This document shows, piece by piece, positions 3,255-63,736 of a stretch of DNA of 64,000 bases. The notes under the pieces are model-generated. The model was not told the origin of the DNA. It saw only the letters and a list, made by a program, of their open reading frames with translations, and did no database searches. Within the stretch, counting starts at the first letter, position 1. Each line of letters begins with the position of its first letter. The translations under genes were made by a program, and so were the position numbers. This DNA comes from Octopus vulgaris (lineage: Eukaryota), in the NCBI GenBank assembly GCA_951406725.2, contig OX597833.1, positions 3,596,001-3,660,000 on the forward strand. Direction: 5' to 3'.

Positions 3255-5033
3255 TTAAGATGATGAATTGTGGATTTTAAGGTGTCTGTAGAGGTGGGAA
3301 GACTGGGAGAAGGCACGGTTGCAAATATCGCAGACATAAGGTCGCTTTTGTTCATGGATCAATAAATGTCTTGAGAGATTGGAGGAACGAGAGAAAGCTT
3401 TGTTACAAATTTCACACTGATATGGTTTCTCGCCCGAATGGGTCCTTAAATGGATCGACAAGTTGGATGACTGGGAAAAAGATTTGTCGCAGACCAAACA
3501 ACGGAATGGTTTCTCTCCAGAGTGAGTTTTCATGTGACGCGATAAATGAGAGGAATCTGTGAAAGCTTTGTTGCAAAGTTCACACCTGAAGAGTTTCTCG
3601 CTTGAATGAGTCTTCATGTGAAGCGCCATTGCTGAAGCTTCCAAGAAACTTTGGTTGCAGAAACCACACAAATAAGGTTTTCTTTCAGGTATTTCTTCTG
3701 AAGAATACAGAATTTGGTTGCTGTTGTTGTTGTTGTTGCTGAAAAACATGTTGGTACGGGGAGATTTCAAGACATTTTCATTACACTTGCCACAAGGATA
3801 GTTTGGTGAAGGCGCTTTGATCTTTGGCTCCGCCAGATGCTGATTATGTATCTTTTGATGTCTGGTAAGATGTGAAGATTGTGAGAAAGACTTCTGGCAA
3901 ATGGTACAGGTAAATGGTTTTTCTTCAGAATGGACTTTGATGTGTCTAGACAAGTTGGAAGAGCGTGAAAATGATTTGTCACAGATTTCGCAGGTGAATG
4001 GTTTCTCACCAGAATGACTACGTAAATGAATCGACAGATTGGAAGACTGGGAAAATGCTTTCTCACACACGTGGCACACGTAAGGTTTCTCCTCGTAGTG
4101 TGTCCGCATGTGCCGCGCCAGGTGAGAAGACTGCAAGAAGGCGCGGTCACATATATTACAGACAAACGGTCTTTCTGCTGTGTGAATTTTGATATGACGA
4201 GAAAGACTTGAAGAACGTGAGAAGCCCTTTTTGCAAATGTCACATTTGAATGGCTCCTCACCTGTGTGTAAGCGAGAGTGGAGAGAAAGGTGTTCGGCTC
4301 GGAAGAATGCTTTGCCACAGGTGGGACAGAAAAATGGTTTCACCTCAAAATGGATCCGCAAGTGGCGGGTTAGATGTGACGACTGCAAGAATGCTTTGTT
4401 GCAAACCTGGCAGACATGGGATTTCTCCTGTGTATGAATCTTCATGTGGCGGGACAAATTCGAAGAGCGCGAGAACGACTTGGCACACATATCACATTTG
4501 AATGGTTCCGTTCCAGAATGGATGCGGAGATGAATGGACAAGTTGGAGGTCTGAGAGAACGTCTTGTGACAATATTCACATGAATAAGGCCGATCTTTCG
4601 AATGGATGCGTAGATGCCGTGTTAGATGAGACGACTGGGAAAAAGCTTTGTGGCAAATCTCACAGACATAAGGACGTTCGGCAGTATGGATTTTATGGTG
4701 CCGAGACAGATTGGAAGAACGAGAAAACGCTTTCTTGCAGATCTTACACACATATGGTTTTTCCCCAGAATGGGTTTTCATGTGGTTTGACAAATGTGAA
4801 GATTGCACAAAAGCTTTATTGCAAATGTCGCAAGCATATGGCCGACTGGCATCATATACTTGTATGGAGATCCCTTTTGTGGTACCATTCTTCTTCAGAA
4901 TATGGTTAGGTAACCAGGCCTTGATCAAATCATCAGTTAAGTTGTGAAAGCTCTTTTGGTGCAGAATGAACTCATCCTCTTCAGCAAAGATTATCATACA
5001 ACTGGAGCACTCGTATGCTCTGATATCAGCCAT
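3255..5033 (-). CDS. C2H2 zinc-finger protein, 592 aa, 18 intact fingers (1 + 12 + 5) and one degenerate finger; single coding exon
   Basis: Repeated CxxC-x12-HxxxH with TGEKP-like linkers; in-frame TGA three codons upstream of the ATG supports the start; polypyrimidine+CAG acceptor at 5119-5142 (-) implies a 5'-UTR intron. Confidence 0.95.
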   Translation of the reverse strand: MADIRAYECSSCMIIFAEEDEFILHQKSFHNLTDDLIKAWLPNHILKKNGTTKGISIQVYDASRPYACDICNKAFVQSSHLSNHMKTHSGEKPYVCKICKKAFSRSSNLSRHHKIHTAERPYVCEICHKAFSQSSHLTRHLRIHSKDRPYSCEYCHKTFSQTSNLSIHLRIHSGTEPFKCDMCAKSFSRSSNLSRHMKIHTQEKSHVCQVCNKAFLQSSHLTRHLRIHFEVKPFFCPTCGKAFFRAEHLSLHSRLHTGEEPFKCDICKKGFSRSSSLSRHIKIHTAERPFVCNICDRAFLQSSHLARHMRTHYEEKPYVCHVCEKAFSQSSNLSIHLRSHSGEKPFTCEICDKSFSRSSNLSRHIKVHSEEKPFTCTICQKSFSQSSHLTRHQKIHNQHLAEPKIKAPSPNYPCGKCNENVLKSPRTNMFFSNNNNNSNQILYSSEEIPERKPYLCGFCNQSFLEASAMALHMKTHSSEKLFRCELCNKAFTDSSHLSRHMKTHSGEKPFRCLVCDKSFSQSSNLSIHLRTHSGEKPYQCEICNKAFSRSSNLSRHLLIHEQKRPYVCDICNRAFSQSSHLYRHLKIHNSSS

Positions 5034-5118
5034 GATAACTCAATGTGGACACACCAACCTTCAATCTTTAAGATTCGCTGATCATCTCAACAGATTATGG
5101 TTCACCATTCTGAACAGC

Positions 5119-5198: not shown

Positions 5199-5552
5199 AG
5201 GAGTGTGTAACAACTTACCTGCCGAATCGACCGGCCCCGAAAATGGATGGCGCTGGAGCAAGCGACCGATGCCGGACCAGCCAGGCGACAGGTTGTGTGA
5301 TCGCTGGCGAGGCGACTTACCGATGCCTGGTCGAGTAGGAGGGTGCCACGGCGTGCATGGAAGCCGCGGGTGCGAGCCCGGGTGAAGCCGACCACGGGTG
5401 CAGATCTCGGTGGTAGTAGCAAATATTCGAACGAGACCTTCGAAGACTGAAGTGGAGAAGGGTTCTGTGCCAATAGCAGTCGAGCACGGGTCAGTCGGTC
5501 CTAAGGAGCGGGCAAAAACTTCCACGAAAGGCACCAGATCCGTCGAACGTAG
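5199..5552 (+). pseudogene. Dispersed 28S (LSU) rRNA fragment, about 350 bp
   Basis: Conserved eukaryotic LSU motifs in order: GGAGTGTGTAACAACTTACCTGCCGAATC, GAAAATGGATGGCGCTGGAGC, GGTGCAGATCTCGGTGGTAGTAGCAAATATTC, GAAGTGGAGAAGGGTT, GGGTCAGTCGGTCCTAAG; no flanking rDNA. Confidence 0.92.
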
Positions 5553-5554
5553 CA

Positions 5555-5668
5555 GGGGCAAGCATGGCTGTGTGGTAGGAAGCATACTTCTCAACCACAT
5601 GGTTCTAAGTTCAGTCCCATTGTGTGGAACCTTGGGCAAGTATCTTCTACTACAGCCTCGGGTCGACT
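5555..5668 (+). mobile_element. SINE family A head (3'-truncated)
   Basis: GCATGGCTGTGTGGTAGGAAGC...GTTCAGTCCC...CCTTGGGCAAGTATCTTCTAC. Confidence 0.8.
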
Positions 5669-28204: not shown

Positions 28205-28470
28205 CGTTAATATTGAACAGTGAGATGTTCTCAACTATGCATTGGTGGATAAATATTCTTTATTTGTAGACTGACAAGGCACCCAATAGTTTCATATTAA
28301 TAGAGATATATCACTTAACAATTATCGACCCTATTGCATGGGACAGTTGGTATTCGTTTTTATCTTGGATGAAAACACAATAAAGTGTGTGTGTGTGTAA
28401 CAGTTTGAGTCAGTGTCATTTGACTTAAAGTCTCGTGGGCGCAGGATACGTCCATCTCATCAGTGTCCTA

Positions 28471-28522
28471 GCATCTGATGAGATGGGTGTGCTCTACGCG
28501 CCAACGAAACTTCAAGTCATGC
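28471..28522 (+). ncRNA. Type I hammerhead ribozyme motif, predicted cleavage after GUC at 28518
   Basis: Stem I GCAT/ATGC; core CTGATGA (28475-28481); imperfect stem II closed by G-C; GAAA (28506-28509); stem III ACT-TCA-AGT; C17. Confidence 0.75.
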
Positions 28523-28616
28523 GAAGCTGAGTTCAGCTGTTATGAAAAATACATAGCTCCGATCAAATTTGTTCAGTGCTACTTTCTTTCATTTTTTTCA
28601 CTCACTCGTGCGCGCC

Positions 28617-28618
<2 letters not shown>

Positions 28619-28699
<81 letters not shown>
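28619..28699. repeat. (TG)n microsatellite
   Basis: Direct reading. Confidence 0.95.
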
Positions 28700-45935: not shown

Positions 45936-46043
45936 TATATATATATATATATACATACTTATCTACTTATATATAAGTTATATATCTATTTCTCTGTTTT
46001 TTTTCTTTCAGAAGTGGGTTGATATCTAAAACATTCCAGAAAC

Positions 46044-47357
46044 ATGGCACCTGTCACAGAAGGCGTTGAAGGTGGGAATCCTGGTAACTTGATACTTTTT
46101 AATACTTGCAAAAACGAGTTGTTCTCCCTGGGTCGAGGTTTCAAAACCTTCAGTCGTAAACTTCGGTCCGACTGGAGATTCCAAAACAACAAGGACTCGA
46201 TTACCGAGGAGAAGCTCGCCAGTGCCCGTGTGTTTGTCCTGGCGGCTCCCCGCGAGAAATTCACTCAGGATGAGTTCAATGTCATGAAACACTACGTTGC
46301 CAAGGGCGGCAATATATTTGTGATGCTGGGTGAAGGCGGAGAAGACCGATACGAAAACAACATCAACTTCCTGCTTGAAGAATATGGTATTATGATAAAC
46401 AGCGACTCTGTTGTGAGGACATCTTATCACAAGTATTTCCACCCTAAAGAAGTGTTGGTACAGAATGGGGTCCTGAACAGAGCCATCAGCCAAGCAGCAG
46501 GGAAGCTGAACTCAGGACTGATCAGTGATTCTGATGGTGGGAACAATGCACAAGCACTCTCGTTTCTGTATCCTTTTGGTGCGACCCTGAATGTCATTGC
46601 TCCAGCTGTGTCCATCTTGTCGTCAGGCACTGTGTCGTTCCCACTCAACCGTCCAGTGTGTGCCCTGTATTCCAGCCAGCAAAGCAAAGGCAAACTCGCC
46701 GTTCTCGGTTCTGTACATATGTTTAACGATACTTACTTAGAGAAAGAAGAGAATCTGAAAATCCTGGAAGTTCTGCTGAAATTTCTCACCACAAACAACA
46801 TCAAACTGAACCAGATCGATGCCGACGACCCGGACATATCTGACTACAACATGCTGCCACAAATGTCCACCTTGTCTGAAGAACTGAAGACTTGTTTGCA
46901 GGAAACGGACGACATTCCTCGCGACATTGCCTCCCTGTTTGACAACTCTCTGTACAAGCTGGACACGTCCCTCATCCCCACAGCGATTCGGGCCTACAAC
47001 GAACTGCATGTGAAGCATGACACCCTTGCACTGATCACCCCACAGTTTGAAACCCCTCTCAGTCCACTCCAGCCGGCTGTTTTCCCGTTGGCTCTTCGGG
47101 AACTGCCTGCCCCCAGTTTGGATCTGTTTGACCTCGACGAGCAATTCTCATCGGAGAAGGCTCGTCTGGCCCAACTCACAAATAAGTGCACAGACTCTGA
47201 CCTTGAGTATTACATACGAGAGTGTGGAGATATTTTAGGGGTGACCACTAAACTCTCTTCAGAATCGAAAGATGCCAAACATATACTGGAATATATCTTC
47301 CTGCGAGTTGTGGAATTCAAGAAGCTAAACCAGGAAACTGAATATGCAGGTGTTTAA
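46044..47357 (+). CDS. IFT52: Intraflagellar transport protein 52, 437 aa, uninterrupted CDS
   Basis: Diagnostic motifs MLGEGGE, NINFLLEEYGIMINSDSVVRT.Y.KYFHPKE, YPFGATL, LITPQFETPL.PLQPAVFP, LFDLDEQFSSEKARLAQLTNKC, VVEFKKLNQE. Confidence 0.97.
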   Translation: MAPVTEGVEGGNPGNLILFNTCKNELFSLGRGFKTFSRKLRSDWRFQNNKDSITEEKLASARVFVLAAPREKFTQDEFNVMKHYVAKGGNIFVMLGEGGEDRYENNINFLLEEYGIMINSDSVVRTSYHKYFHPKEVLVQNGVLNRAISQAAGKLNSGLISDSDGGNNAQALSFLYPFGATLNVIAPAVSILSSGTVSFPLNRPVCALYSSQQSKGKLAVLGSVHMFNDTYLEKEENLKILEVLLKFLTTNNIKLNQIDADDPDISDYNMLPQMSTLSEELKTCLQETDDIPRDIASLFDNSLYKLDTSLIPTAIRAYNELHVKHDTLALITPQFETPLSPLQPAVFPLALRELPAPSLDLFDLDEQFSSEKARLAQLTNKCTDSDLEYYIRECGDILGVTTKLSSESKDAKHILEYIFLRVVEFKKLNQETEYAGV

Positions 47358-48592: not shown

Positions 48593-48947
48593 ACTATTTT
48601 GATAATTTTCAACTTAATTCACTGTGGTTTTGTTGCTATTGCTCAGATGTGATCTTAGATGTTTGTTGCTTTCTTGGTTGTGTTGTTGCTAACCCAGATG
48701 TGTTGCAATTCTCCCAGTTTGTATCAGTGCTTTCACAGATGTTGCTAACCCACTTTTGTCATTGTTGTTGCTAATCCACTCCTGTTGTTGATATATCAGT
48801 CCATTGCTGTTACTATCTCCACTGTGTTATTATCCAAAATTCAGGATATGTTGTTGCTATTGCAGATACTTGTTGCTTTCTCATCAGATATTGTTGCCAA
48901 CTCAGTTGCGTTGTTGCTATCCCAGATGTGTTCCCTTCACAATTTAT

Positions 48948-49675
48948 GTCATTGCTATCTCAGATGTTGCTAATTTAGTTTAGCCAATGTTGTTGCTATC
49001 CCTGATGTTATTACTGCAGCTTGCCATTGCTATCTCATATGTTGTTGCTAATCTAGCTTAGCCAATGTTGTTGCTATCCCTGATGTTATTACTGCAGCTT
49101 GCCATTGCTATCTCAGATGTTGTTGCTAATCTAGTTTAGCCAATGTTGTTGCTATCCCTGATGTTATCACTGCAGCTTGCCATTGCTATCTCAGATGTTG
49201 TTGCTAATCTAGCTTAGCCAATGTTGTTGCTATCCTGATGTTATTACTGCAGTTTGCCATTGCTATCTCAGATGTTGTTGCTAATTTAGTTTAGCCAATG
49301 TTGTTGCTATCCCTGATGTTATCACTGCAGCTTGCCATTGCTATCTCAGATGTTGTTGCTAATCTAGCTTAGCCAATGTTGTTGCTATCCCTGATGTTAT
49401 TACTGCAGTTTGCCATTGCTATCTCAGATGTTGTTGCTAATTTAGTTTAGCCAATGTTGTTGCTATCCCTGATGTTATTACTGCAGCTTGCCATTGCTAC
49501 CTCAGATGTTGTTGCTAATTTAGTTTAGCCAATGTTGTTGCTATCCCTGATGTTATTACTGCAGCTTGCCATTGCTATCTCAGATGTTGTTGCTAATCTA
49601 GTTTAGCCAATGTTGTTGCTATCCTTGATGTTATCACTGCAGTTTGCCATTGCTATCTCAGATGTTGTTGCTAGT
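48948..49675. repeat. 78-bp minisatellite, about 9.4 copies
   Basis: Unit GCCATTGCTATCTCAGATGTTGTTGCTAATCTAGTTTAGCCAATGTTGTTGCTATCCCTGATGTTATTACTGCAGCTT starting at 49023, 49101, 49179, 49256, 49334, 49412, 49490, 49568, 49646. Confidence 0.95.
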
Positions 49676-50058
49676 CTAATTTTGCTTTTGCTGTTGCTAT
49701 TCCATTGGTGCCAGGCTTTTTGCAAAATGTCATGTGATGTCAAGAAAAGCACATGCACACACACAAACACACACACAATAGCCCTCTTTCAGTTTCTGTC
49801 CACCAAATCCACTCACAATGCTTTTGTGGTCCTGGGATTGCAAGAAGACAACTGACATTATGGAACAGGAAACCAAAGTTTGCCTCATAGAAGACTAGTT
49901 CTCAATCTGGACCCTTCATAGTGTGGGGCCCACTGAAGAACTTGGAGATAGGTTCCTTGCAGCAGCTAAACCACAGGGAGAGGTCGAGCACTTTAAAATT
50001 TCTTACTCTCTGGAATGAAAGGGAGAAAAATTAGTGGCTATTGTATCTGAGAGATTTT

Positions 50059-61259: not shown

Positions 61260-63533
61260 TTATGAATCAAAGTCAGGCCAAAAAGAGACATGGATCTTGC
61301 GTAGTTTACTATCAAATAACTTCAAAAGCCAACGATCCAAACCTTGCAGAGGTCCACCTTCTAGAAGTGGTTTAACAATTAATTCATTATGTTCTTTCTC
61401 GCTTTCCGACTCTGTGGCGGTGCCATGCAGCTGTTGTAAGCCTCTGGATGTGCTCTTTGCATGGTAGATGTAATAGTACTGGCGGTAACCGTTAATGGCC
61501 AACACCGTGCCGATGCAGTTGCGAATGTTAATGTTACAAAGTTGAACTCGGTTGTCGATGCTTTCTTCAAGTAAGTGTCGGTACCATGCTAAATATTGGT
61601 CGAGATCTAAATAAGAGAAAGTCAGCACGTTCGAATGAGAATATTCTCTCATTAGCTTCCGGAAAGAATTCAATATATCTTCCTTATCATCATCTGCCAG
61701 AAGTACAAGTATGGTGAAACCTGGATCAGTGTCTTTGACAAGCATGTCGTAGGTCTCGGGACAGAGTTCATAAAGAACCATAGTGTTGTCCGGGCTTTTT
61801 AAAGCCAGTCTCTTGTTTTTGATGTACAGTGGTCTAGGCCTTATTTTGGGCTGTTGCTGCATCACTTTTTCCATTTCCGTGTTAAGCATCCGACGCATCA
61901 ACAATCCGACAAAGAAGACAGAGAGAAGAGCAATAACAATGCTGAACCATGTCGTGAAATCATAATGTTTGAAATAGCCTAGCAGGCGATTAAACCAGTC
62001 GAAAAACTTGTGAAGGATTCTTACCATTAGACTCAACGTGTGTTCATTGTGGAAGTCAGGCAAGGTAGCAGTGTAGTGTAGAATATTAGAACTGGCAAAC
62101 AACTCTTCTAGACGTTTCTCAAGGTTCTGGCATGTTATCTGGTTATGGATGTCGTTACCACTCCATCCAGGTTCCACCCATTCATAGTTCATGTGGTGTT
62201 TGTCCATGCGCCACAGAATGGCCAGCTTCAGTGTCGAAGGGTTTGAATGCGTCTGGTTCCCATCCATGAGGGCGCTGACGAAACGGCGCTGTGTTTCTTC
62301 GTAGAGGTACATAAATTTCACCTTGTTTTCGAAAGTCGGGGCCCGCTCGACGTAGTTTCGAAACTGTGAACGGTACCTGTTATGTTCGTCGGTCTTCTTG
62401 CTGACTAGAATCACACACAGTTTTCGACGTTTGGGTCTGATCTCAATGGGACACAATTCATCAAAGAATATTTGCGACGAGAGGCGAGGTAAAGTGAGGT
62501 ATTGGTTAGCATCCATCACTTCGTTGATGCTGTCCGAAGACAAAGTATTCATCGTGACAATTGCAACACTCGTGTTACTGTCTTCACCAACCATCAAAAG
62601 ACTTTCTTTAGCCTTGTTTACATTAAAACGATCCAGTATTCCTAAAACATTAGAGCTTCGGGTGTTGACATAACCGGATGCGATTTTCTCACGGTGGGCG
62701 AAAGCCGACATTAAGAACCTCAACGGCGGTTTCTCTTTCGGGGCGAAAAATAAGGCTCTCATTCGGTTATCAGACCACCCGAGTAGGAAATCTTTGAAGT
62801 TATTATCGCTCAGTGTTTTCAAGGTTTTCGGAGGTTCAAACAGATTTCGAACAAAATCGCGAAGTGCTTGTTTGGTAACGTGGCCCTTAAAGTAAGTTAC
62901 CCGACCATTGACAATAGCCATGATCTGAGGAATTTCATGGATACGCAAATTACTGCCCAGCACACGGTTCGATGTCACATGGATGGTTCCTACTCCAATT
63001 CCAAGTTGTTCCTGGTCTTTGATGAATTTTTCGATCAAAGGCTCGATATGTCGACAGATGTGGCAAGTGTCACCATATGCATAAAGAAAATAAGGTCTTC
63101 GATAGCTTTCTGGAAGAATTCGGACATCGTAGAACTCGTGGGTTATCATGTGTTTATCGATAATCGATTCAGCTCCAAAATTGAACACCCGAGATCCAGG
63201 TGGCCCCGGTTTCTGATACCTGGCATAGTTCCTTTGTATATGATTGTCATGAGATGCTACGTAACCGTGTTGGTCGTAGATCGACCGCCGTTCCGGATGG
63301 CCTAACGTTTGGTACGCCTCGTTGATTTTGGTAAATCTAAACACAGCAGCAGGATCTTTGTTCTTGTCAGGGTGCCACATCTTCACCAAGTACTTATAAG
63401 CCTTCCTGATGTCTTGGTTGCTCGCGTGTCTGTTTACTCCGAGCACATCGTACGGATTATCAGCAGAACCAAAACTCGAAATAATTACGATCATCAGAGG
63501 TAAAAACATGAGGGAAACCAATATTTTCTTCAT
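61260..63533 (-). CDS. DNAJC16: DnaJ homolog subfamily C member 16 (ERdj8-like), 757 aa, uninterrupted CDS
   Basis: Signal peptide, J-domain with HPD (WHPDKNKDP), thioredoxin-like CxxC (CHIC), LPRLSSQ.FFDELCP...CVIL motif, one transmembrane segment near residues 527-545, C-terminal GLDRWL.KL. Confidence 0.92.
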   Translation of the reverse strand: MKKILVSLMFLPLMIVIISSFGSADNPYDVLGVNRHASNQDIRKAYKYLVKMWHPDKNKDPAAVFRFTKINEAYQTLGHPERRSIYDQHGYVASHDNHIQRNYARYQKPGPPGSRVFNFGAESIIDKHMITHEFYDVRILPESYRRPYFLYAYGDTCHICRHIEPLIEKFIKDQEQLGIGVGTIHVTSNRVLGSNLRIHEIPQIMAIVNGRVTYFKGHVTKQALRDFVRNLFEPPKTLKTLSDNNFKDFLLGWSDNRMRALFFAPKEKPPLRFLMSAFAHREKIASGYVNTRSSNVLGILDRFNVNKAKESLLMVGEDSNTSVAIVTMNTLSSDSINEVMDANQYLTLPRLSSQIFFDELCPIEIRPKRRKLCVILVSKKTDEHNRYRSQFRNYVERAPTFENKVKFMYLYEETQRRFVSALMDGNQTHSNPSTLKLAILWRMDKHHMNYEWVEPGWSGNDIHNQITCQNLEKRLEELFASSNILHYTATLPDFHNEHTLSLMVRILHKFFDWFNRLLGYFKHYDFTTWFSIVIALLSVFFVGLLMRRMLNTEMEKVMQQQPKIRPRPLYIKNKRLALKSPDNTMVLYELCPETYDMLVKDTDPGFTILVLLADDDKEDILNSFRKLMREYSHSNVLTFSYLDLDQYLAWYRHLLEESIDNRVQLCNINIRNCIGTVLAINGYRQYYYIYHAKSTSRGLQQLHGTATESESEKEHNELIVKPLLEGGPLQGLDRWLLKLFDSKLRKIHVSFWPDFDS

Positions 63534-63736
63534 CGTGTTTGAGTTTTTCTTATAAAATATACTCGTATAGTACAGTACCTCTGTGTTTCGAAGGTGTCAA
63601 ACTGGCGAATACCCCGTCCAAAGTACCCGAGGTGGCTGATGACATTTAAATTCCAGCGGAGGAGGGGAAATATCAACAATCGATTCAAAGTAAAAGTCAG
63701 TTATCTGCCCTTAGTTACCAGTTCTTCTCACCAGGT

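Follow-up and report, generated by a model that had tools for sequence, protein, structure and literature searches.

In the Hydra clade of Penelope-like elements (PLEs), as described by Craig et al. (2021, PMC8557442), the protein carries DKT instead of DKG together with RWK, CxCx5C, CxxC and CxH motifs; the annotation of Penelope-13_HM includes an inverted copy, truncated at its 5' end, and one hammerhead per strand. An inverted 5'-truncated copy and a tail on one side are standard for EN+ PLEs (PMC8557442, PMC3846280). Self-priming on an antisense template was proposed by Arkhipova et al. (2013, PMC3846280). For PAc, Frangieh et al. (2024, PMC11167929) reported that the Penelope protein in vitro cuts and extends both target strands, that two nearby RNA start sites bound the tail and thereby explain it, and that the hammerhead of their study cleaved only with protein. 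Minimal hammerheads in opposite-strand pairs 100–700 bp apart were described by Cervera and de la Pena (2014, PMC4209133), where a minimal monomer gave no cleavage and dimers low cleavage; minimal hammerheads were also reported to need dimers (Luense et al., according to the review PMC6765202).

The locus studied here lies in a stretch of 64,000 nt of Octopus vulgaris DNA (contig OX597833.1), referred to below as the window. We read it, with a probability of about 0.9, as a stump, 210 nt long, left by an old Penelope-like retrotransposon of the Hydra type; it consists of two 3' ends placed head-to-head and is likely functionless. This reading draws on family membership, on an RT/endonuclease remnant upstream of the hammerhead in longer copies, on the paired arms with their one-sided tail, on junctions that vary and on decay of the core. 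The sequence-only reading had proposed the remnant of a Penelope-like retroelement that carried a hammerhead and was duplicated in inverted orientation, and the family, its RT/EN link and the paired arms bear this out. Like the Hydra clade members Penelope-13_HM, -6_HM, -14_HM and Hydra-1_Obim, the family has an RT plus GIY-YIG-type ORF of ~700 aa, a hammerhead near the 3' end and microsatellite targets (PMC8557442), the target being (GT)n here versus the (TA)n given for the clade in that source. The inverted head-to-head end and the palindromic junctions are also found in Pen2a_Av (PMC3846280) and PAc (PMC11167929), and in those units as at this locus the tail is confined to one arm. Unlike the Pen2a_Av and PAc units described there, both arms here barely exceed the hammerhead, no ORF lies between them and no discrete target-site duplication is readable inside the flanking GT runs, the last point counting against the reading. 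The architecture is thus a known one in a Hydra-type family and matters little as it stands; the family has some value as documentation of Penelope integration.

Table 1. Positions of the features of the head-to-head locus (window coordinates) and of hammerhead sites in the sister family (locus coordinates).
Feature	Position	Strand	Remark
(GT)n run adjoining short arm	28385..28398	.	likely left half of microsatellite target
Inverted short arm, tailless degenerate hammerhead copy	28398..28463	-	CUGAUGA kept; GAGA for GAAA; no stem I
12-nt perfect complement	28452..28463	+	innermost segment of inverted arm
Inversion junction	28464..28474	+	includes 5' strand of stem I
Long arm, 5'-truncated 3' end of Hydra-type Penelope-like element	28465..28609	+	profile -10 to 129
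Type I hammerhead motif (minimal form) in the element's 3' repeat	28471..28522	+	no core letter missing
Stem I 5' strand GCAU	28471-28474	+	pairs with AUGC 28519-28522
Core CUGAUGA	28475-28481	+	mapped letter by letter
Stem II closing pair	G28482-C28505	+	
GAAA	28506-28509	+	
Stem III, 3 bp	28509-28511 with 28515-28517	+	
C17	28518	+	predicted cut 28518/28519
One-sided tail	28543..28609	+	~65 nt; missing from inverted arm
(GT)n run beyond tail	28619..28699	.	likely right half of microsatellite target
Sister-family hammerhead site	L151:1277	-	
Sister-family hammerhead site	L153:1178		
Sister-family hammerhead site	L155:1046		

The plus-strand motif shows the elements of a type I hammerhead, namely a CUGANGA core, GAAA, a UH site and three helices, with the open end at stem I. 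It had been called complete, and all core letters are indeed present; the qualifier is that stem I has four base pairs and that stem II is imperfect, an A being bulged out and a G-A mismatch lying two pairs away from the core. This core-proximal mismatch is absent from most family copies. The 9-mer of stem III is self-complementary with one central mismatch, as in the dimer type, with a self-pairing energy of −3.4 kcal/mol. Stem III of the palindromic type ACTT-T-AAGT-C is shared with Penelope-6_HM and -14_HM (PMC8557442), and the short stem I, the palindromic stem III and the long stem II with a bulged base after G10.1 are shared with the minimal hammerheads of metazoan PLEs (PMC4209133, PMC6765202). 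Unlike in the metazoan PLE pairs, the two cores here are only 11 nt apart, and the ribozyme is a putative one. The hammerhead of Hydra-1_oBim, as it appears in PMC8557442, is another core variant with different stems II and III, so that the octopus family looks like another one. Animal non-LTR retrozymes (Li et al. 2026, 10.64898/2026.07.22.740005) are likewise dispersed and PLE-related and carry a type I hammerhead; they are tandem same-strand units, unlike the inverted pair and the protein-coding family seen here. Assignment of the locus to that group was rejected, since it has one sense motif without tandem units and its family has an ORF.

Searches of the locus with the Rfam hammerhead models, one of the checks suggested at the outset, gave no match to any hammerhead family, neither at gathering score nor at E up to 10; minimal PLE hammerhead variants may be absent from these models. 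The loose pattern CUGAUGA-N8-38-GAAA occurs three times in the window versus 1.56 expected and is not enriched. Despite this, the full motif is real because the locus belongs to a repeat family in which stem I covaries. Among 108 arms, stem I pairs 1–3 showed TA 76/CG 8, AT 72/GC 10 and TA 39/CG 32 (0 of 2000 shuffles for each), the arms being mutually related, so that the covariation reflects subfamilies and not independent events. The same 108 arms showed clear covariation in stem II at pair 7 alone and none in stem III. Covariation, likewise named beforehand as a check, was thus found for stem I; as judged from the alignment, it shows that the fold was kept in the parent lineages and is uninformative for this particular copy. 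In one subfamily (6 of the 108 arms, including locus L162), stem I is fully swapped, with ATGC/GCAT replacing GCAT or ATAT, which amounts to a four-pair compensatory change.

Dispersed family copies were recovered genome-wide by similarity, core and tail searches. With the locus itself excluded, its own 2.8-Gb genome contained 55 matches at 69–89% identity, of which 30 were fetched and 28 were distinct. Searching with the exact core pattern returned 29 matches, at 28 distinct loci, and the exact pattern for the 19-nt tail returned 17, each versus 0 in the control. A rough hand estimate from per-site mismatch rates puts the core-spanning arms in the genome at a few thousand. Pairs of arms were scored with a profile covering the final 640 nt, as self-blastn missed several inversions including the one at this locus; the profile was trimmed after its iteration had drifted into microsatellites, leaving ends approximate and junctions good to a few bases. 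Head-to-head pairs were present at 21 of 28 core-picked, 16 of 28 similarity-picked and 8 of 17 tail-picked loci. Loci picked further upstream, at the end of the ORF, gave 7 of 30 and 0 of 30, a low yield that goes against the reading, though the test sees junctions only inside the last 640 nt and most junctions of these loci fall outside the profile.

Inverted pairs made up 46 of the 139 distinct loci scored. The tail was found on one arm in 37 of them, on both in one and on neither in eight, and a microsatellite lay at most 40 nt from the tail end in 24 of the 37 asymmetric pairs and at most 40 nt from the short end in 16 (background 12%). The present locus fits this family rule, with a short arm, a tailed long arm and GT runs on both sides. 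Its short arm corresponds to profile positions 0 to 67 and ends ~24 nt beyond the cleavage-site position; the length of its tail exceeds the 30–40 nt given in the papers, which counts against the reading as a relic of this kind. Both arms begin between −35 and +50 of the core in 35 of the 46 pairs, and between −16 and −2 in six of the eight inverted tail-picked loci. The latter, a small unbiased hint, suggests that reverse transcription ends, or cDNAs are joined, at a place determined by the hammerhead's 5' edge. Arm starts showed no sharp peak at the cleavage site (+44) and were spread from +27 to +67.

The 35 pairs in which both arms begin near the core, and the many copies that are hairpins of 150–220 nt, could also be produced by a small palindromic element, MITE-like or retrozyme-like, that propagates itself and transposes with its head-to-head arms as one fixed unit. 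We consider this very improbable, because the 46 pairs have 45 distinct junction pairs, their ends are asymmetric, the lengths of family members form a continuum up to ORF-bearing copies and tandem units are lacking at the locus. At two other loci the palindrome runs past the element into flanking DNA, over 418 nt at 85% (L009:1386-1794) and over 506 nt at 73% (L007:1001-1498), which suggests fold-back duplication at or beside the insertion. Two groups of near-identical loci, L131–L133 and L081–L082, lie close together on one contig and are probably segmental duplications or assembly repeats.

Upstream walking showed that in long copies this hammerhead is continuous with a decayed ORF of the RT plus GIY-YIG type, the end of which is separated from the hammerhead by ~450–500 nt. 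The link between hammerhead and ORF is drawn for this very family because several copies carry both. Locus L124 has this hammerhead end and a tblastn match to a 713-aa RT/EN homologue (aa 121–551, E 6e-38), L093/L079 combine the same end with a match to aa 159–587 (E 1e-17), and L102, L106 and L112 join the hammerhead to later parts of the ORF homologue. Full-length members of this family were absent from the copies recovered. A stop-free piece of 139 aa, taken from L103 of a sister family with a different hammerhead, had 135 relatives, many of ~700 aa, and was 45–59% identical to the best 120 of the 135. The single ORF of EN+ PLEs, RT followed by GIY-YIG, is accordingly represented by a broken ORF matching ~700-aa proteins, and the family also shows the hammerhead in the terminal repeat, the 5' truncation, the inverted 5' copy and the one-sided tail of this group. 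PF00078 was precomputed on two of the relatives (among the best 120 of 135), and PF01541 appeared weakly, below cut-off, on two of eight homologues scanned. Pfam searches of 18 read-through frames (L017, L023, L103, L115, L129 and L130) returned nothing relevant, the first homologue (P0002) had no match among solved structures, and a search of the protein atlas yielded unnamed clusters and DUF8422 at 12% only.

Clade motifs were counted in 46 near-full homologues among the best 120 of the 135 relatives. DKT/S was present in 46 of 46 and DKG in none; YRDD was found in 45, RWK/R in 38 and CxCx5C in 34, CxxC beside E in 44 and CxH beside N in 42, and CCHH was absent as judged by eye. In the octopus copies themselves, DKT occurs in L134–L136 of the sister family and EKT in L150 of the present family. 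N-terminal RWK was seen in two of the four sister-family copies that reach it, the copies of this exact family stopping short of it, and CxCx5C is intact in L140 (sister family) and degenerate in L102 and L106. Based on these sequence comparisons, the parent is probably another, unnamed Hydra-type family. The sister Hydra-type family (L103, L115, L127–L146) is ~80% alike among its copies and has its own hammerhead with different stems II and III (Table 1).

The stump was likely made in one insertion event between GT repeats. In the proposed course of events, the endonuclease would nick both target strands in the microsatellite, and each 3' end would prime reverse transcription at one of two nearby RNA start sites, giving a tailed and an untailed arm. 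Both cDNAs would stop early, here close to the hammerhead's 5' edge; their ends would then be joined through a few complementary letters. A self-complementary CTAG lies at 28468–28471 inside the junction, and we infer that it is a possible joining point of the arms. Two-strand priming and self-priming on an antisense template are not separated by these data. In the active parent, the hammerhead was likely functional in tandem transcripts, either as a dimer or aided by protein. In the stump it is without a same-strand partner, since the inverted copy, being on the other strand, cannot be a dimer partner, and any read-through RNA is predicted to form a long hairpin in which the core is buried. 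In a comparison that covered 4 of 19 sequencing runs, contigs in every case, the segment 28368–28618 was present in one contig with two differing letters (kind of run unrecorded); three runs guessed as RNA contained short pieces of other copies only, which has no bearing on expression.

The sequence-only reading went further and proposed that the inverted arm gates the ribozyme in cis. Several of its observations hold. The diverged minus-strand copy is there, with its core at 28463–28457, 11 nt from the plus-strand core, with GAGA in place of GAAA and without stem I, and the 12-nt stretch 28452–28463 is a perfect complement of 28475–28486. The statement that the remainder of the arms has diverged is contradicted by 48 matches in 66 aligned positions (73%) and by the fold, in which 28400–28545 is predicted as a single hairpin of 146 nt (−70.8 kcal/mol, z −8.3, 0 of 200 shuffles). 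The long arm is 86% and the short arm 84% identical to the column majority over profile positions 0–67, so that independent arms would be expected to share 0.86 × 0.84 = 0.72, and 0.73 was seen. Judged by these figures, the arms differ as expected for two copies decaying independently. Across 33 loci the mean arm-arm identity was 0.71, versus 0.68 between loci.

The 12-nt run is within chance: with the mismatches of the locus shuffled, such a run falls somewhere in the arm with P 0.26. Runs of at least 12 occur somewhere between the arms in 11 of 33 scorable pairs, and in 10 of the 33 at least 10 of the first 12 positions match. A 12/12 match at the start of the core is unique to this locus among the 33 pairs (~0.02 per locus), for a locus chosen for that feature from a family with many copies. 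In the predicted fold the upstream arm buries the core (P unpaired 0.02 or less), and this part of the proposal stands in the model; functional gating found no support. Relative to the ensemble, the hammerhead state costs 39 kcal/mol with the arm and 8.6–10.8 kcal/mol without, in a fold model that leaves aside Mg2+ and tertiary contacts, and the predicted "on" state is thus disfavoured even when the upstream arm is removed. For 29 core-intact matches the monomer fold is a median of 13.7 kcal/mol above the ensemble, and the present copy ranks third. It is predicted to be a good candidate for assay, among the best kept of the 29.

Decay of the core was measured in 103 arms chosen without regard to the core. 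The overall mismatch is 0.188 in the core and 0.237 outside, a difference that a composition-matched site test puts at P 0.13. C/G sites decay alike in core and non-core (0.29 vs 0.28; CpG 0.455 vs 0.458). A sites are better kept in the core (0.078 vs 0.162, cell-level p 1e-4), as are T sites (0.121 vs 0.219, p 0.011), and both counts go against the reading as a relic. We read the A/T retention as parent-subfamily variation at non-core sites combined with alignment anchoring; some copies may be conserved. Among 50 spanning arms picked independently of the core, four cores are intact versus 3.1 expected if neutral. The conservation of the core among genomic copies that had been named as a check was therefore not borne out, with C/G sites decaying as elsewhere and few cores intact, and at the level of the family the alignments do not point to selective conservation of the core and its masking arm.

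These results bear on whether the locus could be a co-opted, cis-antisense-gated hammerhead that is silent in read-through RNA and cleaves once the upstream arm is absent. All core letters are in place in a copy that is among the best kept, its 12/12 complement is unique among the scored pairs and the predicted masking is strong (39 kcal/mol with the arm vs 9–11 without). We nevertheless hold this to be a very remote prospect. Masking is automatic in any head-to-head insertion, and insertions of this family usually take the inverted form, with junctions that vary; the 12-nt match is within chance and is approached or equalled in length by the other pairs counted above. The off state is a hairpin of 70 bp, too stable for switching by refolding, and the on state requires transcription to start no more than ~10 nt from stem I and, probably, a partner for dimer formation. 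The core-proximal G-A mismatch in stem II is one that most copies lack, and the arms have diverged as if independent. Since family copies very often sit as back-to-back pairs, the predicted masking is likely a by-product of head-to-head insertion and not an evolved on/off switch. Were gating true, it would be an endogenous gated hammerhead born of transposon insertion mechanics. To our knowledge, antisense-gated designs come from engineered ribozymes only; a literature search on natural ones brought up nothing.

The minus strand of 28400–28545 folds as well (−66.6 kcal/mol, z −8.7). Long hairpins are ADAR substrates, and the stump, inert as a ribozyme, might act in a host transcript as a passive double-stranded RNA hairpin, that is, as a substrate for editing or for small RNAs. 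Its stability in either orientation, with z below −8 for both, is in favour of such a role, which we judge improbable, if less so than the gated ribozyme or the mini-element: the pairing bears no sign of selection, and among the long ORFs of the window no recognisable host gene lies within 17 kb of the locus. The locus may be intronic.

Next to the stump, the minus strand of 28205–28320 is the decayed 3' end of a different high-copy repeat, the core of which is lost in this copy. Loose ends of sequencing-run contigs show a stem III, GAAAC-CAA-TGGT, resembling the one given for Hydra-1_oBim (PMC8557442), and a piece similar to the repeat adjoins a family copy in L010. Elsewhere in the window, two uninterrupted ORFs encode an IFT52 homologue with all three Pfam domains (46023–47357, plus strand, 444 aa) and a DnaJ/thioredoxin protein (61260–63596, minus strand, 778 aa), which we take to be DNAJC16-like. 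Being intronless, both point to retrocopies or intron loss. The window further contains a single-exon C2H2 zinc-finger array of 594 aa (3255–5039, minus strand), a 28S rRNA fragment that continues into a copy of a common dispersed repeat (5412–5664) and a tandem array of ~11 units of 78 nt (48887–49780).
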